In this document: positions 2,328 to 64,000 of the stretch, one piece after another
Numbering within the stretch: position 1 is the stretch's first letter
How the letters are laid out: every line of letters starts with the position of its first letter
DNA from: Nitrospinaceae bacterium
GTDB lineage: Bacteria > Nitrospinota > Nitrospinia > Nitrospinales > JACRGP01
Length of the DNA stretch: 64,000 nucleotides
Direction of reading: 5' to 3'
Assembly (NCBI GenBank): GCA_029261575.1
Contig: JAJDBD010000088.1
Coordinates: 13,524 to 77,523 of the forward strand
Made by a program: the position numbers and the translations under genes
The notes under the pieces: model-generated
Databases searched by the model: none
Told to the model about the DNA's origin: nothing
Seen by the model: the letters and a program-made list of their open reading frames with translations, nothing else

Positions 2328-3518
2328 ATGGCAAAAGAAAAATTCGTTCGCGATAAACCGCATTTGAATGTTGGAACTATCGGGCACGTGGACCATGGAA
2401 AAACCACCCTCACCGCGGCCATCACGGAAGTTTTAGCTAAAAAGGGGCTCGCCGATTACGTCCCCTTCGACAAAATCGACAAGGCGCCAGAGGAGAGAGA
2501 GCGCGGCATCACCATCGCCATCGCCCATGTTGAATATCAATCCGAGATACGCCATTACGCGCATGTCGACTGCCCCGGTCACGCCGACTACGTTAAAAAC
2601 ATGATCACCGGAGCCGCGCAAATGGACGGCGCCGTTCTGGTTCTGAACGCCGCCGACGGTCCCATGCCTCAAACCCGCGAACACATCCTTTTGGCGCGCC
2701 AGGTAGGCGTTCCCAGAATCGTCGTTTTTCTCAATAAGGTGGATATGGTGGACGACGAGGAGCTTCTCGACCTGGTCGAGCTGGAAGTGCGCGAGTTGTT
2801 GACCGAATATAAATACCCCGGCGACGACATTCCGATCATTCGAGGCAGCGCTCTGCACGCCTTGGAAAATCCGGAAGACGAGGAAAAAACCAAATGTATC
2901 TGGGAGTTGATAAAGGCGCTGGACGAATACGTCCCGATTCCCGAGCGCGCCGTCGACAAACCTTTCCTGATGCCCATCGAGGATATCTTCAGCATCTCCG
3001 GGCGTGGAACGGTAGCTACCGGCAGAATTGAAGCTGGCGTCGTTCATGTCGGCGACGAGGTGGAGATTGTCGGTTTCCGGCCCACCACCAAAACCGTTAT
3101 CACCGGCGTGGAAATGTTCCGCAAATTGCTGGACGACGGGCAGGCGGGCGATAATATCGGAGCGTTGCTCCGCGGCACCAAGCGCGACGATATCGAACGC
3201 GGGCAGGTGCTCGCCAAGCCGGGAAGCATCACTCCGCACACCAAGTTCAAGGCCCAGGTCTATATATTGAAAAAAGAAGAAGGCGGTCGACACACGCCGT
3301 TTTTTAACGGCTACCGTCCGCAGTTTTATTTTCGGACCACGGACGTTACCGGCATTTGTACCCTGAAAGAAGGCGTTGAGATGGTCATGCCTGGGGACAA
3401 TGTGGATATGACGATCGATTTGATCACGCCCGTAGCTATGGACAAGGAACTGCGATTCGCTATTCGCGAAGGCGGCCGTACCGTGGGCGCCGGAGTCGTG
3501 GGCGAGGTTGTTGAATAA
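2328..3518 (+). CDS. tuf: Elongation factor Tu
   Basis: 396 aa with [17 protein letters not shown] and NKVD motifs. Canonical EF-Tu length and position. Confidence 0.98.
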
Positions 3519-3832
3519 TGGCCGAACAAAGCCAAAAGATTAAAATCAAGCTTAAAGCTTACGACCACAAGCTCCTGGACTGGTCTGTTGGCGAAATCGT
3601 GGAGACGACCAAACGGACCGGCGCGCGAGTGGTGGGACCCATCCCTCTGCCGACGGTGAGAAACAGTTGGACGGTGTTGAGGTCTCCGCATGTCGACAAG
3701 AAATCCAGGGAGCAGTTTGAGATTCGGACTCATAAGAGGATCCTGGAGATTCTCGAGCCGACCCCTCAGACGGTCGACGCTCTCATGAAGCTGGATCTTT
3801 CCGGCGGCGTGGATATAGAAATAAAACTGTAA
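3518..3832 (+). CDS. rpsJ: 30S ribosomal protein S10
   Basis: 104 aa with S10-like sequence ([13 protein letters not shown]...PLPT). The ATG overlaps the tuf stop (TAATG), so there is no room for an S10 leader. Confidence 0.96.
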
Positions 3833-3990
3833 GCGTCGGCGCCAGGCAAGCGCCTGGAGGCATTAGGCGTAACTTATTTGGGTAACGCTACGGATTCGGC
3901 GACAATTGTATATTTCGGGACGAAGAAAAAGTATTTTATGGATTCGTCTATTTTAAAACTTTTTCGGCGACCTGTTAGCTAGAGAGAACT
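3833..3990 (+). repeat. Structured intergenic repeat, family 2, copy 1 (hairpin CCAGGC-AAGC-GCCTGG at its 5' end)
   Basis: Fills the unusually long rpsJ|rplC gap. It aligns over its whole length with the reverse complement of 63266-63422, including an exact 23-nt block (3840-3862 = revcomp 63399-63421). Confidence 0.75.
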
Positions 3991-4626
3991 ATGAACACCT
4001 TGTTGGGTAAAAAAGTTGGAATGACTCAGATTTTCTCCGAAAAGGGAGATTGTGTGCCTGTGACCGTGGTCGCCATGGAGAGTTGCATTCCCGTATTGCA
4101 AAAAACTCAGGAGAAAGACGGTTACAACGCCGTGCTGGTGGCCTGCGGCGAAAGAAAGCCCAAGCGCACCAACAAACCTCTTCAGGGGTTCTATGACAAG
4201 CACAAACTCAAACCCGCCCGCCAACTGACCGAATTTCGCGACGAAACCGCGGAAGAAGATCAGCTCGGCAAACCGTTGGATACGGGCATGTTCAGCGCGG
4301 GAGATCTTGTGTCTGTGGTCGGGACGTCCAAGGGTAAAGGGTTCGCGGGCGTGATGAAGCGTCACAACTTTAAGGGAAAGAACTCGTCGCATGGAACGCA
4401 CGAATCCTTTCGCGGCGGCGGTTCTATTGGTATGCACACCTACCCGGGACGCGTATTCAAAGGCAAAAAAATGCCGGGCCGGATGGGCGGCGATCGCATT
4501 CAAGTTAAAAATTTACAAGTGGTCCAGGTCGACGCAGACAAAAATATTTTGCTCATCAAAGGCGCCGTGCCCGGCGCCCGGGGCGGAATGGTTCGCGTGA
4601 CCCAAATCCACAAGGCCAAGGAATAA
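3991..4626 (+). CDS. rplC: 50S ribosomal protein L3
   Basis: 211 aa, L3-like (MTQIFSEKGDCVPVTV..., KGKGFAGVMKRHNF). Conserved S10-operon order. Confidence 0.96.
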   Translation: MNTLLGKKVGMTQIFSEKGDCVPVTVVAMESCIPVLQKTQEKDGYNAVLVACGERKPKRTNKPLQGFYDKHKLKPARQLTEFRDETAEEDQLGKPLDTGMFSAGDLVSVVGTSKGKGFAGVMKRHNFKGKNSSHGTHESFRGGGSIGMHTYPGRVFKGKKMPGRMGGDRIQVKNLQVVQVDADKNILLIKGAVPGARGGMVRVTQIHKAKE

Positions 4627-11665: not shown

Positions 11666-11666
11666 A

Positions 11667-11762
11667 AGGGTCTCTAATAATTGTAAGTTTTTGCTTTCGG
11701 CAACGCCCCGTCCCTTATTTATAAGGGACGCTCGCGGCCATGATTAATTTTTAGAGGCGCAC
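11667..11762 (+). repeat. Palindromic ~95-nt MITE/REP-like element, family 1, copy A
   Basis: Lies in the rplR|rpsE gap. Terminal inverted repeats CCTCTAATAATT / AATTTTTAGAGG and a central stem-loop GTCCCTTAT-TT-ATAAGGGAC. An exact 32-nt block (11729-11760) equals the reverse complement of 16697-16728. Confidence 0.85.
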
Positions 11763-11839
11763 TCAAGCGGGAATCAAGCTCCGACGATTTGAGAAAAAAG
11801 ATTGTCGGGAGTTGGAGTTCCATAACAGCGAGGTAGACT

Positions 11840-12796: not shown

Positions 12797-14109
12797 GCGG
12801 CGCAGAGAATATAGGAAACATATTCAAGGTTCCCGAACTGAAGAGGCGCGTCCTCTTTACATTGGGGATTTTGGCCGTCTACAGGCTTGGGGCGCATATC
12901 CCCACCCCTGGGATCGACAGCGCGGCGTTGGTGGAGATATTCGCCAGAGTTCAGAGTACCATTCTCGGATTCTTCGACATGTTTTCCGGGGGCGCCCTGA
13001 GTCGACTCACGATATTTGCGTTGGGCATCATGCCCTACATCAGCGCCTCCATCATCCTGCAGTTGCTGACGATTGTTTCCCCGTATCTGGCGCGGCTTAA
13101 AAAAGAAGGCGAACAGGGACAAAAGAAAATCACCCAGTACACCCGGTACGGAACCATCCTGGTGAGTATTATCCAGAGTTCCGGGATCTCCATGGGGCTG
13201 GAAGCCATGAAAAGTCCCAGCGGGCAAGCCGTGGTGATGGAGCCGGGGTGGTCCTTCCGGTTGATGACCATTCTCACGCTGACCGCCGGAACCGCTTTCA
13301 TCATGTGGCTGGGCGAACAAATTACCGAACGGGGAATCGGCAACGGAATCTCCCTCATCATTTTCGCGGGGATCGTGGCCGGCACCCCCGCCGCGATATT
13401 TCAATCCCTGGACCTGATGGGGACGGGAGAATTACAGCCGCTGGTCATGCTGGTGATCACGGTGATGATGGCCTTCGTGGTCGGCGCCATTGTGTTTTCC
13501 GAGGGAGGGCAACGCAGGATACCCATACAATACGCCAAGCGCGTGGTGGGACGAAAAATGATGGGCGGCCAGAGTTCGCATTTGCCGCTAAAAGTCAATA
13601 CCGCGGGCGTCATCCCGCCTATATTTGCCTCGTCCATCATCATGTTTCCGGCCACCATTGCCCAGTTTATAACGCACCCCTGGATGCAAAACATTTCGGC
13701 GGCGCTGACGCCGGGAAACGTGATTTACAGTTTAATATTCATTGGGGCGATCTTTTTCTTTTGCTATTTTTATACGGCGGTCATATTCAACCCCGTCGAC
13801 GTGGCCGACAATATGAAGAAACACGGCGGTTACGTTCCGGGAATTCGACCGGGCGCTAAAACCGCGGAATATATCGACCAAGTGTTGTCGCGGATCACGT
13901 TTTTTGGAGCAGGCTATCTTTCGTTGATCTGTATTTTGCCCGATTATTTGATAAAATACTTCAACATTCCCTTTTATTTCGGTGGCACCAGCCTGCTCAT
14001 TGTCGTGGGCGTTTCACTGGACACCATGCAGCAGATAGAATCCCATCTGGTGATGAGAAACTACGATGGGTTTGTCAAGAAGGGGAGGTTGAGAGGCAGA
14101 AGAGGCTGA
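12793..14109 (+). CDS. secY: Preprotein translocase subunit SecY
   Basis: 438 aa multi-TM protein. ATGA overlap with rplO, conserved spc-operon position, SecY-like sequence ([24 protein letters not shown]). Confidence 0.96.
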
Positions 14110-14753
14110 TGAGGTTGATACTTTTGGGACCTCCCGGAGCGGGAAAAGGCACCCAAGCCAAACTGTTGATGAAGAAATACAATATCCCCCAGATATCGAC
14201 CGGGGATATTTTAAGAAGAGCCGTTCAGGACGATAACGATTTGGGTCGCAAGGCCAAAACGTCCATGGACGCCGGAAGCCTGGTTCCGGACGAAACCGTC
14301 ATCGGCCTGATCCGGGAAAGAATCCGGGAAGCCGATTGCGCAAGAGGATTTATTCTGGACGGGTTTCCGCGCACCGAGGTGCAGGCAGAAAAGCTCGATG
14401 AGATGTTGCGGGAGCTGGAGCTGACTATCGACGCGGTGTTGGATTTTAGCGTGGACGCCGAAGAGTTGGTGTTGCGCCTTACGGGGCGGCGCACTTGCAG
14501 GGAATGTGGAGCGATGTTCCACGTCGACGGTCGGCCCCCGAAACGGTCCGGCGTATGCGATCATTGCGACGGCGCGCTTTACCAGAGGCCCGACGACAAC
14601 CAGGCCACCATCACCAAACGGATGGAAGTCTACGAAAAGGAAACAGCGCCGTTGAAAAAATATTATAGCCAACAGGGAAACCTCAAAACGCTGGAAGGAG
14701 CAGGAGACACGGAACAGATATTTTCCCGGGTTTGCCAGCTCGTTTCCTCCTGA
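14109..14753 (+). CDS. adk: Adenylate kinase (zinc-finger lid type)
   Basis: 214 aa, P-loop GPPGAGKGTQ, lid CRECG...CDHCDG. Start overlaps the secY stop. Confidence 0.96.
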   Translation: MRLILLGPPGAGKGTQAKLLMKKYNIPQISTGDILRRAVQDDNDLGRKAKTSMDAGSLVPDETVIGLIRERIREADCARGFILDGFPRTEVQAEKLDEMLRELELTIDAVLDFSVDAEELVLRLTGRRTCRECGAMFHVDGRPPKRSGVCDHCDGALYQRPDDNQATITKRMEVYEKETAPLKKYYSQQGNLKTLEGAGDTEQIFSRVCQLVSS

Positions 14754-14847
14754 GGGGCGATTCCAAAGAGCGCTTTTGGCCAAGAGCGGCCTGGGTGAAG
14801 AGTTGCCGAGGCGCGGCAGAGAAAAAATCGAATTACTAGAGGTTCCC
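14754..14847 (-). repeat. Family 1 element, diverged copy D (same orientation as copy B)
   Basis: Fills the adk|infA gap. Shares GGGCG...TTGGCC..GAGCGGCC...AGTTGCC...AATTAcTAGAGGTTCCC with copy B (16695-16792). More degenerate than copies A and B. Confidence 0.55.
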
Positions 14848-14857
14848 TGATAAAATT

Positions 14858-15076
14858 ATGTCAAAAGAAGAGTCCATAGAAGTTGAAGGAACAGTCGTCG
14901 AACCTTTGCCCAACGCAATGTTTCGGGTAGAGCTTGATAACGGTCATAAAATCCTGGCGCACATCTCAGGAAAAATGCGTCTTCATTTCATCAGGATTTT
15001 GTCCGGAGACAAGGTGAAAGTGCAACTCTCCCCCTACGATTTGAGCCGGGGGCGAATCACCTACCGTTACAAATAA
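14858..15076 (+). CDS. infA: Translation initiation factor IF-1
   Basis: 72 aa with the [25 protein letters not shown] motif. Confidence 0.97.
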
Positions 15077-16694: not shown

Positions 16695-16792
16695 GGGCGC
16701 CTCTAAAAATTAATCATGGCCGCGAGCGGCCCTTATGAAATAAGGGCTGGCGAGTTGCCAAAAGCGAAAGTATCCAATTATTAGAGGTTCCC
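16695..16792 (-). repeat. Family 1 element, copy B (inverted relative to copy A)
   Basis: Starts immediately after the rpsD stop. Its reverse complement aligns with copy A along the full length, including 32 identical nt. Ends GGGCGCCTCTAAAAATT ... AATTATTAGAGGTTCCC. Followed by a GTTCCC...GGGAAC hairpin at 16786-16815. Confidence 0.85.
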
Positions 16793-16866
16793 ATAAGAAA
16801 TCCCCCGGAGGGAACGCCCTGCGGTAACTTTATAAATGATATTTGAAAAATCAGGCGGAGGCCTTT

Positions 16867-17895: not shown

Positions 17896-17927
17896 ATAAC
17901 GGATTCGCGCTAACAACCCATTTAAGG

Positions 17928-18024
17928 ACGCTTCTGGTAATTCAAAATTTTTTCGTTTGGCAACTCGCTTGGCCTTTATTTTAATAGCCAAGCTCGCGGC
18001 CTCGGACAATTTTTAGAGGTTCCC
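17928..18024 (+). repeat. Family 1 element, copy C (same orientation as copy A, degenerate 5' end)
   Basis: Lies in the rpoA|rplQ gap. TTTGGCAACTCGC...GCTCGCGGCC...CAATTTTTAGAGGTTCCC matches copy A and the reverse complement of copy B. The central stem is replaced by GGCCTTTATTTTAATAGCC. Confidence 0.65.
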
Positions 18025-18052
18025 TTAATTTAATAGAGAAGGTAATGATCCC

Positions 18053-36755: not shown

Positions 36756-37493
36756 ATGAACTGCAAATTTGCCAAACCGGGATTTCGATGGGGCCGCGCG
36801 CGGGCCTGGTGGGCTATCCTTTGTGTTGGGGCTCTTTCGGCGTGCGCCTCCGGAGCCGTTACCGGCAACCGCTACGTGGACGAGTCCAGAGGTTACCAGA
36901 CCTCCTGGTCGGCGTCGGATTGGGAGACGATCCCGGACGCCTGGTCCTACGATGATGATTTCGGAACGATCCTGACCCAGACGCCCGGAAAATTTCAGTA
37001 CTTCACGGAGAAAAGACACGACGGCAGGCCGCGCAACGAACTGGGCCGTTATTACGATCCTCCCAAGACGAAGGAAACTTCAATATTCGACGTCGGACTG
37101 GGATTGCGCCGGCAAGGCGCGGACCTGAAAATTCTAGCGGCCACCGCCACCGAGGGTCGTTTGTTCAAATTTGTACAGGCTCACAAGGACCGGCGGGATT
37201 ATGGCAAGCGGGGGGAGTTGATCCGGGATTACTTTGAAATCATCGGGGCGCCCTCTGGCGCCGCGAAGGGAGCGGGCGGCTCGTCCGGCGCGGATATTTT
37301 AACGACGCGGTGGAATTCGGAGCAAGGCGCGCGCGTACTCCATGGAAGGTTTGTGGGTGATTATGTATTGCTGGTTTTTCTGCAAGCCGGGAACTCGGTT
37401 TCCAACGATCTGTTGGACGAGGGAGTCGCCGTCGCTAAAAGTCTGATCGATGAAAATTTAACCCTTCTTTCCGAAACGTCCCATCGAAATTGA
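36756..37493 (+). CDS. Hypothetical lipoprotein
   Basis: The signal peptide ends in the lipobox-like LSAC. No recognisable domain. Start taken at MNCKF (36756). Confidence 0.5.
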   Translation: MNCKFAKPGFRWGRARAWWAILCVGALSACASGAVTGNRYVDESRGYQTSWSASDWETIPDAWSYDDDFGTILTQTPGKFQYFTEKRHDGRPRNELGRYYDPPKTKETSIFDVGLGLRRQGADLKILAATATEGRLFKFVQAHKDRRDYGKRGELIRDYFEIIGAPSGAAKGAGGSSGADILTTRWNSEQGARVLHGRFVGDYVLLVFLQAGNSVSNDLLDEGVAVAKSLIDENLTLLSETSHRN

Positions 37494-37517
37494 ACGTCCT
37501 CCCGCGAAGCGACCGGG

Positions 37518-38417
37518 CTAAAAGAAACTGCGCGGGATGTGAATGATATCTCCCGGTTTCAGGCGGATATTCTTTGTCAAATCGCCCTCAAAAATGACCT
37601 GGTCCAGAGGCACGCTGATCCGTTTGATTTCTTTTACCCCGTTGGAATTCATGGTCTTTCTATACACCTTGGCGGCTTTCGGACGGGCGATTTCCGTCAG
37701 TCCCTCGGCCATTAAAATCGCGTCGAGAATAGTAATGCCCGCGCGAAAATCGACCACCTGCGGTTTTTTCACCTCGCCCATGACGTTGATCCGGCTGTCG
37801 AAATTGTCGTGGATCAAAACAAAGTCGTTGTCCTTGAGAATGACGTTTTGGGAAAATTCGTCCTCGCGAATCAGCGCGTGGAAATCGATGGGCATCTTCT
37901 TTCCATCCCGAAGCAAATAGGATTTTTTGAGATCGGCTTGTTCGGTGAAGCCCTCGGCCAGGGAAAAAAGATGCAAAAGGGAAATCGGCCGGTTCACTTT
38001 AAAAGTCCCCGCCTTGTTGACCTCGCCGGTGATGGAAATTTTGATGCTGTTGATCTCTTTGACGATGACGGTGACGCTGGCGTCGGTGATGAATTTCCTG
38101 AGGCGCGCAGTGATTTCTTTCCTCAATTCCGACGGAGTCCTGCCTTTGGCCTTGACGTCTCCGATCAGGGGAAAGGCGACCAGGCCGTCCGGGCGAACGG
38201 GCATTTTAGAGGTCATTTCCTTACTGCCCCACACCGAAATTTCGATGATATCCTCCGGACCCAGTCGAAACGCCTCCTCGTCGGCGGTTTGGGTCGAAAG
38301 GTTTGAAGATTTTTCCGCTGGAGACGCGAACCCCTGCGCTCCCGCTGGAGAGGAATAGAAGGAAAGATTCGTCGCCGCCAGGAACAACAATCCTACAACC
38401 GCCCAATTATATTTCAT
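37518..38417 (-). CDS. Polysaccharide export outer-membrane protein (Wza-like: Poly_export + SLBB)
   Basis: Signal peptide MKYNWAVVGLLFLAATNLSFYSSPAGAQG, then LGPEDIIEISVW...PVRPDGLVAFPLIGDVKAKGRTPSEL (Poly_export motif) and SLBB-like repeats. Alternative start at 38447. Confidence 0.8.
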   Translation of the reverse strand: MKYNWAVVGLLFLAATNLSFYSSPAGAQGFASPAEKSSNLSTQTADEEAFRLGPEDIIEISVWGSKEMTSKMPVRPDGLVAFPLIGDVKAKGRTPSELRKEITARLRKFITDASVTVIVKEINSIKISITGEVNKAGTFKVNRPISLLHLFSLAEGFTEQADLKKSYLLRDGKKMPIDFHALIREDEFSQNVILKDNDFVLIHDNFDSRINVMGEVKKPQVVDFRAGITILDAILMAEGLTEIARPKAAKVYRKTMNSNGVKEIKRISVPLDQVIFEGDLTKNIRLKPGDIIHIPRSFF

Positions 38418-38529
38418 GATTCCCCCAGAATTTTTAAACCCACGCAAAACCGAAAATCCGCCTCGTGTCTGAAAAGGTTCCTAAGCGTTAGTCAAGCGGG
38501 ATATTTAACAGCGATGGATTTTGAGCGTC

Positions 38530-38563
38530 ATTATAGCATCGAGGCAAGAGAAGCAGACGTCAA
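38530..38563 (-). promoter_or_regulatory. Candidate sigma70 extended -10 promoter for the wza-like gene
   Basis: The minus strand reads TTGACG-N22-TGCTATAAT, that is TGnTATAAT at 38538-38530. The -35-like hexamer is 22 nt away, which is too far to be canonical. A C9 tract (38568-38576) abuts it upstream. Confidence 0.4.
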
Positions 38564-38637
38564 AAATGGGGGGGGGTGGAAGCGAACTGCCGCGCGCCAA
38601 AGATCCCTTGAGCGGGTTGGAGCGGAGCGCCGGGTTT

Positions 38638-39300
38638 TCAGGTAGCGGGAGTTCTTTTTATCAGGAGAATTTCGTGCATGTTCCAAAAATAAGTAATCGT
38701 CTTGTCGAGAGAAACATTCTTTTTCGATTCCAGATGCGCCAATACGGTGGCACGGGGTAAAGCCTTGCCGTTGTACCCAACCGCCAACACGCCGTCCGAG
38801 GCAAGGTAATCGGGCGCCTGGTCGAATAAAACGTCCAGAACTCCGGGATCTTCATAGTAGGACAAATTCCAGAAAATTATGTCGTAGGTTTTTTGGGGGA
38901 CGTTGGAAAATACGTTCGAGGTCAATGCGTTTACTTTATAAGAATTCGCCGAAATAAATTTTTTGGCGCACTCCACCCGTTCCTCGCGGTTGTCCACTCC
39001 GTCGATGGTCGTGGAAACCCGTTTGGAAAGACAGCCGCTCAGGATTGCAAAACTTCCCACGCCAATTTCCAGCATGCGGGGATTGTCCCATCGGCGTATG
39101 AGTTTCTTCAATTCGCGGCGCAGGAGGACCGTCGTCAGATCAAAGTAGCAACTGTCCCCCGTATCGACGGGAAAACGGCTCATCCCAAAAATCAACCGGG
39201 CAAGGAATCGGGATCGGAGACATGCGTGCCAAAAGGATCGAAACCGCGACGGAGCCGCGCCGGCGTAAATTTGATAAATTTTTTCGACTAGGACTCTCAT
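38638..39300 (-). CDS. Class I methyltransferase (HemK-like fold, degenerate NPPY)
   Basis: Motif I MLEIGVGSFAILSG. DIIFWNLSYY sits where N6/N5-MTases carry D-x4-NPPY. Last gene of the FkbH-ACP cassette. Confidence 0.6.
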   Translation of the reverse strand: MRVLVEKIYQIYAGAAPSRFRSFWHACLRSRFLARLIFGMSRFPVDTGDSCYFDLTTVLLRRELKKLIRRWDNPRMLEIGVGSFAILSGCLSKRVSTTIDGVDNREERVECAKKFISANSYKVNALTSNVFSNVPQKTYDIIFWNLSYYEDPGVLDVLFDQAPDYLASDGVLAVGYNGKALPRATVLAHLESKKNVSLDKTITYFWNMHEILLIKRTPAT

Positions 39301-54689: not shown

Positions 54690-56077
54690 TAAAAGTTTGC
54701 GTGGTCGCCCACGATCCCATTCAAAAAGCGATGGCCGGTCCGGGAATCCGCTCTCTTGAGCTGGCCCGCGCCCTGGCGAAAAATTTCGACGTCACCTTCG
54801 CCACGCCCAACCCGGTCGACCTTCCCGGCGAATCCTTCAAGACGGTTTATTATAATTACCGGTCGCTCAAAAAAATCGTCGAGGACCAGGACGTGGTCTG
54901 CGTCTTCGGGTTTCAAATCCGTCGGTTTCCCTTTCTGAAAAAAATTGCCGCCGCTCTGGTGGTGGACGTCTATTGCCCGACCTTTTTCGAGGCGCTGGCC
55001 AGTTATCAGGAACAGACGTTGGACGAAATGGTTCCTCTATGCCGAGTGGTTTTGGATATTTTTCAGGAACAACTCCAGATCGGGGATTTTTTTATTTGCG
55101 CCGGCGAAAAGCAGAGGGACATGTGGGTGGGCATGCTGATGGCCACAGGGCGGATCAATCCCTACACCTTCGCCATGGATAACACTCTGCGCAAGTTGAT
55201 CGACGTCGTTCCCTATGGGTTGCCGGGCCATCCGCCGGAAAAAAATCAGGGCGCGCTCAAAGGCGCCCATCCAGCCATTAAAAAAGACGATTTCGTTCTT
55301 CTCTGGGGCGGCGGTTTGTACGACTGGCTCGACCCCCTCGTCGCTGTCCGGGCTATGGAAATCGTGGGCAGGAAACGCCAGGACGTTAAACTATTTTTCA
55401 TGGGATGCCGGCACCCTTTGGCGTCGGTGGAAATGGACGTCATCAAGGAAACCCGAAGGCTCAGCGAAGCCCTGGGCCTCACGGGGAAAACCGTCTTGTT
55501 CAACGACCATTGGGTCGCCTACCAGGACCGGGCGAATTATTTGCTGGACGCGGATATAGGACTCAACCTGCACAAAAAATCCATCGAAACCGATTACTCC
55601 TTTCGCACCCGCATCATGGACTATCTTTGGGCGGAGCTTCCCATTCTCACCACCCGCGGAGGAACCCTGGCCGACCTGGTGGAGGAAAAAAATCTGGGCT
55701 GTAGCGTCGATTACGACGACGCGGAAGGGTTGGCGGAAAAAATTCTGGATCTGGCCGACGGGCGGATTCCGCTCGGCGCCTTTAGGGAAAATATTCGCCG
55801 CGTCAAGGGAGATTATTCCTGGGAGCGGGTTGTGGAACCGCTGGAAGAGTTTTGCCGCTCCCCGTTCAAAAGAATCGACCGCAACTTCGCCGTGGAAACC
55901 TGGAGTATCCGTAGCCCCTTTTATTTTTACCGCGCCGCGAGGTCCATTTACAAGACCAAGGGAATGGCGGGTTTGACCGTAAAAGTCGTTCTGTTTTTTC
56001 TAATGAGGATTCAAATCTTTCTCGCCAATTTATCCCACCGCCTGGTTGGCGCCGTGGACAAAAATACCTCTTCTTGA
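54686..56077 (+). CDS. Glycosyltransferase (GT-B fold, GT4-like)
   Basis: MIKVCVVAHDP... N-domain, and a C-domain with a nucleotide-sugar-binding-like segment (FRTRIMDYLWAELPILTTRGGTLADLVEE). ATGA overlap with wzt. Confidence 0.65.
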   Translation: MIKVCVVAHDPIQKAMAGPGIRSLELARALAKNFDVTFATPNPVDLPGESFKTVYYNYRSLKKIVEDQDVVCVFGFQIRRFPFLKKIAAALVVDVYCPTFFEALASYQEQTLDEMVPLCRVVLDIFQEQLQIGDFFICAGEKQRDMWVGMLMATGRINPYTFAMDNTLRKLIDVVPYGLPGHPPEKNQGALKGAHPAIKKDDFVLLWGGGLYDWLDPLVAVRAMEIVGRKRQDVKLFFMGCRHPLASVEMDVIKETRRLSEALGLTGKTVLFNDHWVAYQDRANYLLDADIGLNLHKKSIETDYSFRTRIMDYLWAELPILTTRGGTLADLVEEKNLGCSVDYDDAEGLAEKILDLADGRIPLGAFRENIRRVKGDYSWERVVEPLEEFCRSPFKRIDRNFAVETWSIRSPFYFYRAARSIYKTKGMAGLTVKVVLFFLMRIQIFLANLSHRLVGAVDKNTSS

Positions 56078-60280: not shown

Positions 60281-60984
60281 TGAAGGAAACCGTCAAAATT
60301 TCCATCGTCGTCCCGGTTTACAACGAGGCTCCCTGCCTTGTGGAGCTTTACGACCGGTTGCAAGCAACGGCGCGCGGACTTCATAAAACGTATGAAATAA
60401 TTTTTGTCGACGACGGCAGTCGCGACGGATCGTTGGAGATTTTGCGGGACATGCAAAACCAAAACGACTCGGTCCGGCTGATCGCCTTGCCGGAAAACCT
60501 CGGACAACAGAAGGCGGTGTGGCGCGGATTCCAGGCCAGTCGCGGAGAGATTATCGTCCAACTCGATTCCGATTTGCAGAATCCGCCGGAAGAAATCCCC
60601 AAACTTATTACAGCCATGACGCCGGAAGTCGATCTGGTCTGTACGCGCCCCAGCCTGCGGCGCGACCGCTCATGGCGGGTGTGGGGATCGCGCCTGGCGC
60701 ATCGCGCCGGAGCGTTGTTGTTCGCGGACGCCGGAGCGCTCAACCTGGGATCCTTCCGCGCTTTGAAAAAAAACGTGGTCGATCGAATGGAAACGGCGGG
60801 CGACCGGCGCTACATGGCCGCGCTCATGAGCCGGATGAACCTGGTCCGCGTGGAAATAGAGGTCGACCACCATCCAAGACCGCGCGGCCAGACGAAATAC
60901 AATTTTATTTCGCTGGCGCGGCTCGCCGGAGTGTTGGTCGCCGAGGGATTGAAGCAGGTCGTTCGCAAACTACAGCCCTTATAA
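60280..60984 (+). CDS. Glycosyltransferase family 2, polyprenyl-phosphate sugar synthase-like (DPM1/ArnC/GtrB type), no TM tail
   Basis: ISIVVPVYNEAPCL...IFVDDGSRDGS...QLDSDLQNPPEE. Start at MKETVK overlaps the upstream stop (TAATG). The long upstream extension in the ORF track is rejected. Confidence 0.8.
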   Translation: MKETVKISIVVPVYNEAPCLVELYDRLQATARGLHKTYEIIFVDDGSRDGSLEILRDMQNQNDSVRLIALPENLGQQKAVWRGFQASRGEIIVQLDSDLQNPPEEIPKLITAMTPEVDLVCTRPSLRRDRSWRVWGSRLAHRAGALLFADAGALNLGSFRALKKNVVDRMETAGDRRYMAALMSRMNLVRVEIEVDHHPRPRGQTKYNFISLARLAGVLVAEGLKQVVRKLQPL

Positions 60985-61125
60985 ATAAGGCTGGGCAAAG
61001 CGCCCACCGAAAAGATTTGATTTGCAAACCCAACGTGACTTGTACATTCGCCGTATAAGCGACGCCTATTGGGTCCAGCGTCAAGCTGGCCCGCGCCGCT
61101 TGCCGGACAACCGTTGATTGCCGCC

Positions 61126-61995
61126 ATGGAAATCCAAAAACTCACCTCGCTCATCGTGGAACCGACCAACGCCTGCAACCTGCGTTGCTCCTTTTGTTTT
61201 GTGACCGAGGGAATGGAGCGTCCGGAGGGGTTCATGGACTGGACGCTTTATAAAAAAATTATCGACGAGACCCCGGGGCTGGAGCATCTGGTTTTGCACA
61301 ACTGGGGCGAACCGCTTCTGCATCCGAAAATTTTTGAAATGATCGATTACGCCGCGCAAGCCGGAGTTTGCCACGTCGTGATGAATACCAACGGCACGTT
61401 GTTGGACGACGCAAAAATCGAACGCCTGGTGCGGAGCGGACTGAGCATCCTGCGCTTTTCTATCGATGGGTTGGAGGGAACTTATAAAAACATTCGCGGC
61501 ATTTCTCTGGAAGTCGTCGAAAGCGCCCTGCTGAAGGTCAAAGCGCGACGGGATGCGCTGAGGCCGGACCTGCAACTGGGCGTTGTGTTCACCGTCGACG
61601 AGGAAACCTGCGCCGAGACGGAAGCTTTCCTACGACGCTGGGAGGGTCTGGCGGATCATGTTCGCCTGCAACCCAAACTGATCCGGCAACCGCGCCGGGA
61701 GTCCTGTCCGCAACCTTTCGGCAAAGACTATGGCCAACTCACCGTGTTGTGGGACGGCGCGGTCCTTCCTTGTTGCGTGGATTACAACGCCGAGCTTAAG
61801 CTGGGCGACGCCCGGACGCAGACCGTAAAAGAGATATGGAATTCCAGCGCGATGGCCGCCCTGCGCCGCCGCCACCTCGAGGGGGATTTACCGGAGACCT
61901 GCGCCGGGTGCAACGAATGCCAGACGCCGCAGGCGCCCAAGCGGTTTGCCAGCGCGACGCTACCAGCCGGGGTGACCCCCGGAGGCAATGTTTAA
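61126..61995 (+). CDS. Radical SAM protein with SPASM-like C-terminal Cys cluster
   Basis: EPTNACNLRCSFC (CxxxCxxC). C-terminal CPQPF...GAVLPCCVDY...CAGCNEC. Start at MEIQKL (61126). Confidence 0.8.
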   Translation: MEIQKLTSLIVEPTNACNLRCSFCFVTEGMERPEGFMDWTLYKKIIDETPGLEHLVLHNWGEPLLHPKIFEMIDYAAQAGVCHVVMNTNGTLLDDAKIERLVRSGLSILRFSIDGLEGTYKNIRGISLEVVESALLKVKARRDALRPDLQLGVVFTVDEETCAETEAFLRRWEGLADHVRLQPKLIRQPRRESCPQPFGKDYGQLTVLWDGAVLPCCVDYNAELKLGDARTQTVKEIWNSSAMAALRRRHLEGDLPETCAGCNECQTPQAPKRFASATLPAGVTPGGNV

Positions 61996-62401: not shown

Positions 62402-63265
62402 ATGATCGCGGGTTCTCCAATGACTACGCTATCCCCAACGACAAACGATCCCAATCGTGAAAAAATTCTGAACGCCAATCGCGCGGCGCATGCCCGCGAG
62501 GGAACCTTGTACCTTGCCCGCCATCCGGAGCAATCCAATTTTTATCAAACCCGTCTCCGTTCAAAGGCTCTCGACGAATTTTCTAAAATGGCGCTTCCCG
62601 GAGGCAACCTCCTCGACCTCGGTTGCGGAACGGGATACCTGACCCTCCCCTTGCTGGAGCGGGGTTTTCAGATGACGGCGGTCGACCTTTCGCCTGCAAT
62701 GATAGAAGCTCTGGCGGCTCGCCTCCCAAAAGATAAATTGACCGACTGCCGTTTGCGCGTCGAGGAAGCCGGAGATTTTCTGCGGCGGGAAGAAGCGCTT
62801 TACGACGGCGCAACGCTTTCGGCCCTGCTCCATCATCTTTACGATTATGAAGAAGTCATTGAGGCGATTTGCGCGAGGCTCAAGCCCGGCGCGCCGCTGT
62901 TGATTTACTTTGAACCCCTGAAAGACGCCGGGCATTCGCCTGCGGCCCATAAACTCCACCGCGCTCTGGCGGCGCTGGACGAAACGGTTTACCGGTTGGA
63001 AATGCGTTGGCGAGGGATTCCGTTGTTAGACGAGGAATACGTTTGGGCGGATTACCAGCGGCGCTTTGGCGGGATCGACTTCAACCGTCTGGAGACCATT
63101 CTAAAAAAATCGGGGATGGAAATTCTGCGCGTGGAAAAATTCTGTGCGCGCCGTTATGGATGGGCGTCCTGGATCGCTAACCGAATATTAAAAACGCCAA
63201 ACACTTTCAGCTTGCTCGCCCGCCGGGCAACGCCCGGCCAGCGTGACGCTGGACCCAGCGGTTGA
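62402..63265 (+). CDS. Class I SAM-dependent methyltransferase
   Basis: Motif I LLDLGCGTGYLTLPLL, then YDGATLSALLHHLYD and LKPGAPLLIYFEP. Confidence 0.8.
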   Translation: MIAGSPMTTLSPTTNDPNREKILNANRAAHAREGTLYLARHPEQSNFYQTRLRSKALDEFSKMALPGGNLLDLGCGTGYLTLPLLERGFQMTAVDLSPAMIEALAARLPKDKLTDCRLRVEEAGDFLRREEALYDGATLSALLHHLYDYEEVIEAICARLKPGAPLLIYFEPLKDAGHSPAAHKLHRALAALDETVYRLEMRWRGIPLLDEEYVWADYQRRFGGIDFNRLETILKKSGMEILRVEKFCARRYGWASWIANRILKTPNTFSLLARRATPGQRDAGPSG

Positions 63266-63422
63266 CGATTGAAAAGTTACCCTCAACTCGGATTCGAACT
63301 TTTCGAAATTTCCCTATTGCATTTGATATTCAATAGCGCCGAAGCCGGTCGCGTTTCCCATACAAGTTACGCCATCTGCCCCCGGGGGCTTCCCCGGTTG
63401 CCTCCAGGCGCTTGCCTGGCGG
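63266..63422 (-). repeat. Structured intergenic repeat, family 2, copy 2 (inverted)
   Basis: Its reverse complement aligns with 3833-3990 (exact 23-nt block plus GGCGTAACTT..TGGG.AACGC..CGG.TTCGGCG). It carries an extra CCGGGG-AAGC-CCCCGG hairpin. On the minus strand it begins right after the GGDEF-PilZ stop. Confidence 0.75.
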
Positions 63423-64000
63423 TCAGAGGTTGAGGTTTTCTTCTCCGTCGACGCCCAACAGCTCGCTCAGGAAATTGGCAAAACGGTTTTTCATCTGTCC
63501 TGCAAGGCGCAAAAAGGAAATCCCGATTTCGTAATTGTCGTCAAATTTTTCCACCCGCACCACTTTTCCGATGAGAACCAGACGAGAGTCCTCGTCCGGC
63601 AAGGGCATTTGCACCTGAAGGTGATCGCCCATTTGAAACGCTTTATCGCTGAGGAACAACAAGCCGCCCATGCTCAGATCCTTGCTCTTGACGGGCAGGT
63701 CTTTGGGCGGCGACTCGCTCAGGTCGTTTACCTGCACGTCGCCGATATAGTCGATGCGCAGGTATTGGCGCTTGTCTTCGGAAAACAGTTTGATGCGGTT
63801 TTTGCCCGCCGCCTTGGCGGCGTACATCGCCCGGTCGGCGCAACGCACCAAGCTGATTTCGTCGCTGGCGTCCATGGGATAGCCCGCCAACCCGCCGCTC
63901 AACGTGATGGAGAATTCGTCTCCACTGTAGGACATTTTTAAATCTTCCACCTTTTGCCGAATGCGCTCCCCGATGACCAGCGACTTTACCTTGTGCGTTT
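63423..64000 (-). CDS. Diguanylate cyclase (GGDEF domain, C-terminal part) fused to a PilZ domain; 5' end outside window
   Basis: The frame stays open to the window edge (…THKVKSLVIGERIRQKVEDLKMSYSGDEFSITLSGGLA…ADRAMYAAKAAGKNR, the GGDEF-domain C-terminus). It is followed by PilZ motifs RQYLR (RxxxR) and DLSMGG (DxSxxG). The GTG at 63950 in the ORF track is an internal Val. Confidence 0.8.
   Translation of the reverse strand, partial: THKVKSLVIGERIRQKVEDLKMSYSGDEFSITLSGGLAGYPMDASDEISLVRCADRAMYAAKAAGKNRIKLFSEDKRQYLRIDYIGDVQVNDLSESPPKDLPVKSKDLSMGGLLFLSDKAFQMGDHLQVQMPLPDEDSRLVLIGKVVRVEKFDDNYEIGISFLRLAGQMKNRFANFLSELLGVDGEENLNL

Follow-up and report, generated by a model that had tools for sequence, protein, structure and literature searches.

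A decayed copy of a lineage-specific mosaic interspersed repeat very probably occupies the rpsJ–rplC spacer of a Nitrospinaceae genome

The 158-nt spacer between the ribosomal protein genes rpsJ and rplC was analyzed in the metagenome-assembled genome (MAG) of a Nitrospinaceae bacterium, designated G000 (3.0 Mb, 200 contigs, 52% GC, 87% complete). The window, namely the whole analyzed stretch of 64,000 nt, is contig C88:13524–77523 of this genome. It is very probable that the element in the spacer is a worn copy belonging to a mosaic interspersed repeat that is specific to this lineage and of the same kind as repetitive extragenic palindromes (REPs), bacterial interspersed mosaic elements (BIMEs) and REP doublets forming hairpins (REPINs), and not an RNA specific to the S10 operon. 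The repeat is composed of hairpin-plus-tag units (H) and an internal module (T). This H/T repeat is referred to as family 2, and a separate miniature inverted-repeat transposable element (MITE) of ~100 nt from the same genome is referred to as family 1. The repeat family is apparently new and undescribed for Nitrospinota, and the kind of element is already well known.

The copy in the rpsJ–rplC spacer (copy A) and the genes on both sides of it are arranged as follows:
3518–3832, plus strand: rpsJ, ribosomal protein S10 (open reading frame (ORF) list; Pfam Ribosomal_S10, E 8e-36), with a TAA stop codon at 3830–3832
3840–3862, plus strand: H unit, hairpin CCAGGC-AAGC-GCCTGG (3842–3857) and tag AGGCA (3858–3862)
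3859–3913, plus strand: T-left module (GGCATTAGGCGTAACTTATTTGGGTAACGCTACGGATTCGGCGACAATTGTAT), found with the nhmmer family profile (E 8.3e-10, 40 bits)
3914–3954, plus strand: worn remainder of the long T variant (..GAAAAAGT..GGATTCG..), weakly aligned to the right half of full-length copies
3955–3990, plus strand: leftover spacer including the ribosome-binding region of rplC, delimited by comparison with the spacer of the sister species
3991–4626, plus strand: rplC, ribosomal protein L3 (ORF list; Pfam Ribosomal_L3)

The H unit begins 7 nt past the rpsJ stop codon and the hairpin proper 9 nt past it. The spacer can be aligned to the reverse complement of 63266–63422, and an identical 23-mer (CGCCAGGCAAGCGCCTGGAGGCA) containing the CCAGGC-AAGC-GCCTGG hairpin was found at 3840–3862 and, on the minus strand, at 63399–63421, as reported in an earlier note made from the sequence alone. 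That note had also described an alignment running from end to end of both stretches. The similarity proved to be significant for ~50 nt past the 23-mer (~82% identity) but weak beyond ~3915, where copy A is worn. A local alignment of 49 nt outside the 23-mer (GGCGTAACTT...ATTG.ATAT) reached a score of 28, and none of 1000 shuffles attained it (8.6 ± 1.5, maximum 18.5); thus, the similarity between the two places does not rest on the hairpin block alone. The T-left module of copy A was aligned alongside 34 full-length family copies, and the nhmmer profile gave no match to the right remainder (3914–3954). Copy A (3840–~3954) is a decayed element whose right end is missing.

The distal stretch is bounded on one side by the stop codon of a minus-strand GGDEF-PilZ gene and on the other by the end of a plus-strand ORF for a class-I methyltransferase. 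The features found there (copy B) are the following:
63423–64000, minus strand: 3' part of the GGDEF-PilZ gene (Pfam GGDEF and PilZ), which leaves the window
63399–63421, minus strand: H unit, the shared 23-mer, starting 1 nt past the GGDEF-PilZ stop codon (TGA); the hairpin starts 3 nt past it
63377–63398, minus strand: second hairpin unit, CCGGGG-AAGC-CCCCGG (63382–63397) and tag GGGCA; 17 exact copies genome-wide
63251–63380, minus strand: full-length long T (nhmmer E 1.5e-27, 95 bits), matching the 128-position model end to end
63223–63252, plus strand: two inverted closing hairpins, CCGGGC-AAC-GCCCGG and CCAGCG-TGA-CGCTGG

Copy B (~63223–63421) is a complete element. The extra distal hairpin described earlier is present at 63382–63397, and the copy at 63266–63422 is real, but the element runs on to ~63223, inside the methyltransferase ORF (62402–63265, plus strand). 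The closing hairpins fall within the last ~17 codons of this ORF, and its Pfam domain ends at about residue 168 of 287. The C-terminal tail of the methyltransferase is encoded by the repeat hairpins (63215–63265, ending in ..LLARRATPGQRDAGPSG before the stop codon). The orthologue in the sister species likewise enters a degenerate hairpin and has its stop codon 8 codons earlier. A 'tRNA-like' motif (GTTCGAATCC) in copy B was considered and dropped, as it is not conserved among copies.

A genome-wide nhmmer census demonstrated that the two places, which had been described as a pair, are indeed related but belong to a family with a third copy in the window (~60995–61095) and hundreds of copies genome-wide. 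The 23-mer was found in 27 exact copies in G000 and in 111 copies at ≤2 mismatches. An iterated nhmmer profile of T-left (~53 nt) gave 170 matches, and the long-T model (128 positions) gave 276, comprising 54 full-length, 151 left-only, 36 right-only and 35 other matches. The 14-mers that recur most often in the genome are without exception GC hairpins built to a single design, and 417 oriented perfect hairpins of five stem types were located. Together, the T matches and hairpins span 32.5 kb, or ~6% of the intergenic DNA. T is 92% intergenic, over-represented between convergent genes and under-represented between divergent genes. Relative to flanking co-directional genes, T has the same orientation in 51 cases and the opposite one in 30; for H, these numbers are 26 and 19.

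Alignment of the copies in register revealed the order of the modules: one or more outer GC hairpin units with the tag directed inward, then T, then one or more inverted hairpin units at the far end. Additional hairpin units are optional on either side of T, and the units also occur solo or in tandem stacks. An H unit contains a 16-nt hairpin (6-bp stem, 4-nt loop) within 23 nt, with loops of 3–5 nt across the family. T is a non-palindromic sequence of 55–130 nt with short (~60 nt) and long (~130 nt) variants. It starts with GGCAGTAGGCG and ends with ..ATCAAACyyTGCC in the short variant and with ..TTCAATCGCCAACTACTGCC in the long one; the ends GGCAGTAGGCG and CGCCAACTACTGCC are inverted repeats. 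The hairpins are conserved at ≥91% identity vs ~70% for T. The tag/T junction CAGTAGGCG, which contains GTAG at a distance of 5 nt from the stem, is present in 51 copies in G000, and half of a consensus resembling that of the integration host factor (TATCAA) was seen in T.

The perfect hairpins with 6-bp stems belong to about six related types, the commonest unit being the 23-mer. All of them are fully complementary, each type has a preferred 5-nt tag abutting the stem (RSSCA), and the left and right hairpins of one copy frequently differ in type:
CCAGGC-AAGC: 95 copies, usual tag AGGCA (67 of 95)
CCAGCG-TGA and CCAGCG-TGC: 74 and 32 copies, usual tag ACCCA
CCGGCG-AGG and CCGGCG-AAGG: 57 and 18 copies, usual tag GGCCA or AGCCA
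CCGGGC-AAC: 46 copies, usual tag TGGAA
CCGGGG-TAGC and CCGGGG-AAGC: 22 and 17 copies, usual tag AGGCA or GGGCA
CCGGGC-AAGC: 16 copies, usual tag AGGCA and its variants

To evaluate the distribution of the family, 30 related Nitrospinales genomes were compared. The H pattern (hairpin and tag, ≤2 mismatches) was found 130 times in G000, 102 times in G001 (the sister species 'Nitrospinaceae bacterium OFTM324' of the same genus, g1), and 27 and 16 times in G002 and G004, which represent genus g2. The 26 other Nitrospinales genomes contained 0–4 matches each, and a reversed control pattern gave 0. Among these 30 genomes, the family is confined to two Nitrospinaceae genera. In genus g2, nearly all copies have the doubly compensated form CCGGGC..GCCCGG. 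The comparison of the rpsJ–rplC spacer in relatives, suggested by the earlier note, gave lengths of 4–43 nt in other Nitrospinales, namely 43 and 20 nt for the remaining Nitrospinaceae genera and 4–13 nt in other families. Since the spacers of relatives are short, the long spacer of G000 is a derived state.

In G001, the rpsJ–rplC spacer is 38 nt long and shares AGCTAGAGAGAACT (3977–3990) with G000. It was initially taken for a clean empty site; this was overturned by re-alignment, in which 24 nt of the spacer (AACGCTTCCGGCGTTTGGATATTT) were found to be T-like (12 of 2000 shuffles reach the score), and truly empty sites were found in other genera. As judged from this alignment, the 24-nt stretch is probably a remnant, and the element would have been present in the common ancestor and then almost entirely deleted in G001. 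Such a near-total deletion would indicate that the cell can do without the copy at rpsJ–rplC. In the distal region of G001, two left hairpins orthologous to those of G000 are present, but the T behind them is short and runs the opposite way.

The motif GTAGCGTTYCC was tried as a proxy for T in relatives and was rejected as too strict and uninformative; T in G001 was scored with nhmmer instead, on 370 kb of its sequence. The density of T in these 370 kb equals that in G000. However, of the G000 copies within spans syntenic with G001 (median nucleotide identity of 84%), only 4 of 23 are alignable, and CAGTAGGCG, with its 51 copies in G000, occurs once in the 370 kb of G001. Both contrasts indicate high turnover, with subfamilies amplified separately in each species. 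Thus, of the two readings offered in the earlier note, that of a dispersed mobile repeat was strongly supported by hundreds of copies in one lineage, a site that is empty in related genera and turnover between sister species.

The position of the hairpins relative to stop codons was non-random. A distance of ≤10 nt between a hairpin and the adjacent stop codon was observed for 91 of 415 hairpins vs 24 expected under random placement in the same gaps (3.8-fold), and 7 hairpins vs 15 expected were near start codons. The histogram of distances to the stop codon has a sharp peak at 0 nt (42 cases). Stop-like triplets were found directly 5' of 58 hairpins; 43 of these triplets close an ORF of ≥80 codons, and only 3 such triplets were found on the tag side. 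The usage of TAA, TGA and TAG at abutting stops is about the same as genome-wide. In all 89 stop-abutting hairpins the tag is directed away from the gene, a consequence of the hairpin forming the outer end of the element. In several convergent pairs, the two genes have precisely one element between them (TAA|hairpin...hairpin|TTA), and at one site the hairpins of G000 and G001 differ, each lying 0 nt from a different stop codon. The start of the element a few nucleotides after the stop codon, in the orientation of the upstream gene (9 nt for rpsJ and 3 nt for the GGDEF-PilZ gene), which had been described for the two places, is therefore a rule that holds for the family in general and has strong statistical support.

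Two convergent pairs of G000 with such a spacer lie outside the window. At C59:~36885–38842 and C135:~13001–14876, the whole spacers (187 and 267 nt, respectively) each consist of one long family-2 element, and no nucleotide separates its terminal hairpins from the stop codons on the two sides (TAA|CCGGCG...CGCCGG|TTA).

These characteristics allow us to assume that the elements would be non-autonomous mobile DNA, probably mobilized as single strands that form hairpins, through an enzyme acting in trans, either similar to the REP-associated tyrosine transposase (RAYT) or other. The copies would either insert beside stop codons or survive best there. By analogy with the REPs of E. coli, the hairpin located 9 nt after the rpsJ stop codon, which would form in the mRNA, could act as a barrier to 3'-to-5' exonucleases or as an obstacle to terminating ribosomes, and nothing shows a cellular need for it.

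Several results weigh against this account. The RAYT domain (PF01797, Y1_Tnp) was not found in G000, G001 and G004, with control genomes being positive. In G002, one RAYT-like ORF of 178 aa was found (ORF 995–1531 of G002:C60:22800–25300, L037), with HYH and YIHxN..KHGL motifs and a Pfam Y1_Tnp score of 25 bits. On either side of this ORF lie inverted repeats of its own (GGAGCGCTACGCG ... CGCGTAGCGYTCC), which share with T only 15 nt (GGAACGCTACG, E 0.018) and whose motifs are not present in G000. A tblastn search of this protein against G000 was negative, and two weak matches were not genes. The gene looks like part of a separate REP-RAYT system in the neighbouring genus. A self-BLAST of the G000 assembly revealed no multi-copy insertion sequence (IS), and no target-site duplication of family 2 was recognizable in filled/empty comparisons. 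A TAA...TAA arrangement around copy A was considered as such a duplication and rejected, as it was not reproduced at other filled/empty pairs. The movement itself is deduced from differences between species. Finally, the abutment at 0 nt and the higher conservation of hairpins (≥91%) than of T (~70%) could indicate host selection rather than purely selfish spread. Note that the four repeat-carrying MAGs are all incomplete (71–87%), which makes the failure to find a RAYT weak evidence; because repeat-flanked genes also assemble poorly, the enzyme acting in trans may simply be missing from the bins. That this is a REP-like system working without a RAYT-type transposase, its termini being placed at stop codons with single-nucleotide precision by an insertion mechanism that senses the region of the stop codon or by host selection of the hairpins as RNA elements acting past it, is considered quite unlikely.

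Host selection of the hairpins is an alternative that we regard as unlikely. The hairpins would then be domesticated post-stop RNA elements that protect against 3' exonucleases, form 3' ends between convergent genes or tune termination, and the copy at rpsJ would set the S10:L3 expression ratio; such a role would be compatible with a mobile origin. The sharp peak at 0 nt with its genuine ORF ends, the enrichment near stop codons along with depletion near start codons, the convergent spacers made of exactly one element and the site where differing hairpins of the two species each abut their own stop codon all speak for it. So do the far stronger conservation of the hairpins than of T and the covariation of stems between genera (CCAGGC/GCCTGG vs CCGGGC/GCCCGG). 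Newbury in 1987 and Liang, Rudd and Deutscher in 2015 reportedly described that REPs of E. coli stabilise upstream mRNA and that those within ~15 nt of the stop codon affect translation. However, the orientation rule follows from the architecture, in which the outermost hairpin always points inward, and by itself does not demonstrate selection at the RNA level; a palindrome can fold just as well from either strand, and in DNA too. Furthermore, the rpsJ copy is worn in G000 and almost deleted in G001, where it is dispensable, and the proximity to 3' ends is general to selfish REPs (PMC3733652).

A classical MITE is very unlikely. In this case, the hairpin and GGCAGTAGGCG ends would be terminal inverted repeats recognized by a DDE transposase whose IS is not among the contigs of the MAGs, and a short target duplication would be produced. 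The inverted ends and discrete size classes are consistent with such an element, copy A can be read as flanked by TAA...TAA, and the family-1 MITE shares the same operons and shows clean insertions there. Nevertheless, the left and right hairpin types within a copy of family 2 are not matched, its hairpin units occur solo and in tandem stacks, target-site duplications were not recognizable in the filled/empty comparisons, and the assembly contains neither a multi-copy IS nor a parent IS whose ends match those of family 2.

In order to determine whether the element has a conserved RNA fold, RNAalifold was applied and revealed no consensus pairs in 35 long copies or in 80 short (T-left) copies. 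A hand-made fold of T with two helices was rejected, since 55.0% of cells were paired vs 54.3% in column shuffles. Compared with shuffled sequences, the whole rpsJ–rplC spacer folds no better (z = −1.18), and the complete copy B gave z = −2.28. A search against Rfam 15 gave 0 matches at the gathering score in the whole window and 0 matches at E ≤ 1 at either locus. Thus, structure is confined to the short hairpins, and T has no conserved fold. The hairpin of copy A is followed by AGGCA and not by a U-tract, so it is not a classical intrinsic terminator, in agreement with the earlier description. Within 3850–3870, the 3' arm of the H hairpin (GCGCCT) can instead form a stem with AGGCGT, where T starts, and AACTTATTTG comes next. 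This alternative stem is mutually exclusive with the H hairpin, and the complementarity (GCGCCTGG / TAGGCGC) is inherent in the consensus H–T junction. As a weak terminator-like structure, it was only at the shuffle level, and no terminator or promoter signal was above chance.

The absence of a consensus fold, the occurrence in both orientations (51/30 for T), the lack of Rfam matches and the lack of promoter and terminator signals all speak against the element being an RNA gene or having a fold dedicated to cis regulation, and the structured 3'-untranslated-region RNA or small RNA (sRNA) proposed earlier found no support outside the 16-nt hairpin (spacer z = −1.2). It is scarcely credible that the S10 operon has a cis-regulatory RNA or sRNA of its own (an attenuator, a processing site or a 3'-end-derived sRNA) that is repeated at the GGDEF-PilZ gene. 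The location in a conserved operon directly behind a stop codon would suit such an RNA, as would two local stems that exclude each other (3842–3857 and 3850–3870), but hundreds of copies lie at unrelated loci, the junction lacks the element in all other genera, and the copy is decayed in the sister species.

The preferred reading, a mosaic repeat of the REP/BIME/REPIN kind, was then compared with known systems. All descriptive features of REPs were found: a stem-loop palindrome, high-copy dispersed extragenic occurrence, and location near 3' ends with rarity between divergent genes. Like the REPs and BIMEs of E. coli and other Enterobacteria, the repeats are short GC-rich palindromes with hundreds of extragenic copies, located near 3' ends between convergent or co-directional genes, and can lie in operons and be co-transcribed. 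The palindromes alternate in orientation and combine with other conserved non-palindromic motifs into a mosaic, which is the arrangement that defines BIMEs. However, the two are unrelated in sequence; the stems here come in at least six variants, each with its own 5-nt tag, T (55–130 nt) is far longer than the linker motifs of BIMEs, GTAG is not at the stem, and no TnpA(REP)/RAYT was found in this system.

As in the REPIN-RAYT systems of Pseudomonas fluorescens and other bacteria (Bertels and Rainey 2011, PMC3116915), two inverted hairpins flank a spacer and the whole forms the repeat unit; the hairpin–T–inverted hairpin order has this architecture. The ends are more conserved than the spacer, and inheritance is vertical and lineage-specific, with differing subfamilies in sister species. 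In contrast to these systems, the defining single-copy RAYT gene flanked by REPs was not found in three of the four carrier genomes and the flanks of the G002 gene differ, the left and right hairpins are often of different types, and the spacer T is itself a conserved family.

REPs have been described at <20 bp from ORF 3' ends (convergent and unidirectional), overlapping ORF ends and forming dimers with conserved spacers (Di Nocera et al. 2013, PMC3733652). The GTAG/CGTC-tagged superfamilies of that survey, in which Nitrospinota are not mentioned, resemble family 2 in the occurrence of singletons, head-head and tail-tail dimers with 20–100-bp spacers, heterodimers and clusters, in the location within 20 bp of ORF 3' ends and at times into ORFs, and in the presence of GTAG, here at the tag/T junction. 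Unlike in those superfamilies, GTAG lies 5 nt from the stem and not at its foot, and the tag adjacent to the stem is RSSCA. The Correia (NEMIS) elements of Neisseria, which are MITEs, are also of ~100–150 bp, have inverted ends, lie between co-transcribed genes and may form RNA hairpins. However, they make up one homogeneous family with defined terminal inverted repeats of 26 bp and duplication of a TA target, whereas family 2 has modular hairpin termini and no target duplication was seen.

Outside G000, the exact 23-mer was searched for in one genome per GTDB species and was found in G001, once in a Paracoccaceae MAG and in the Clostridia MAG RGIG5399 (1.6 Mb, sheep colon). The latter contains 14 copies at ≤3 mismatches, mostly within ~65 kb (G031:C8:169–233 kb; L079 4760–5260). 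These copies comprise the hairpin and tag CCAGGCAAGCGCCTGGAGGCA, which has AATGGCG behind it, and also a CCGGGC..GCCCGG variant; a similar ...GGCAAATGGCG tag follows the 23-mer there. No Y1_Tnp gene was found in this MAG. The copies could be due to horizontal transfer, convergence or mis-binning, and the hairpin-plus-tag of 21–23 nt in an unrelated genome may hint at horizontal spread of the repeat system. No exact match to the 23-mer or to a 21-mer was found in the JGI metagenome collection, and a full-text literature search revealed no paper linking Nitrospina with REPs.

Two other family-2 features, not listed in the earlier note, are located in the window at lower coordinates than copy B:
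60995–61095, minus strand: third copy, consisting of a degenerate CCAGC.TGACGCTGG hairpin, an ACCCA tag, a short T and a degenerate inverted hairpin (nhmmer E 1.5e-7)
61967–61987, plus strand: solo hairpin CCGGGG-TGAC-CCCCGG with tag AGGCA, just 5' of the stop codon of ORF 61069–61995

This solo hairpin is one of a pair at 61953–61990 (plus strand), the other being CCAGCGCGACGCT.., and the third copy and the pair overlap the ends of the called ORFs 60519–61058 and 61069–61995.

The family-1 MITE shares with family 2 the genome, the ribosomal operons and insertion differences from G001, but its sequence and architecture are unrelated (TCTAAAAATT...CATGGCCGCGAGCG...CCCTTAT/ATAAGGG). Its copies in the spc/alpha operons are located at 11666–11839, 14754–14857, 16695–16842 and 17896–18052 of the window, and at two or more junctions they are missing from the orthologous G001 sites (insertions of 147 and 89 nt in G000). 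The segment 16802–16834, taken in the earlier note for a family-2 fragment, was not matched by either family profile at E ≤ 1e-3. The related suggestion that the two families form one composite element was weakly right, as they sometimes nest or abut, but they are independent. In G001, a species-specific insertion of 189 nt (C5 ~55505–55700, vs C73:46843–46849 of G000) consists of a family-1 MITE whose central palindrome harbours a complete family-2 element (hairpin, reversed T, hairpin); since one is nested inside the other, the two are separate elements. A third MITE-like family (~235–270 nt) was found in G000 at C97:7497–7768 and C73:37068–37321. It has long perfect inverted ends (GGGTCAGGACTCATTAATTATGT...ACATAATTAATGAGTCCTGACCC) and is cleanly absent from the orthologous G001 sites.

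For the annotation of G000, family 2 accounts for the conserved hairpins and modular intergenic blocks, which calls for caution against assigning them as sRNAs or riboswitches. The elements also change the C-terminal sequences of some proteins and cause breaks in MAG assemblies. Two features are of wider interest for the spread of REP-like DNA and its effects on mRNA, namely that the hairpins abut stop codons so sharply and that a RAYT is apparently absent. The family adds a REP/BIME-like system to Nitrospinota, the globally important marine nitrite oxidisers, and with six hairpin types and a conserved internal module, this system is unusually rich.

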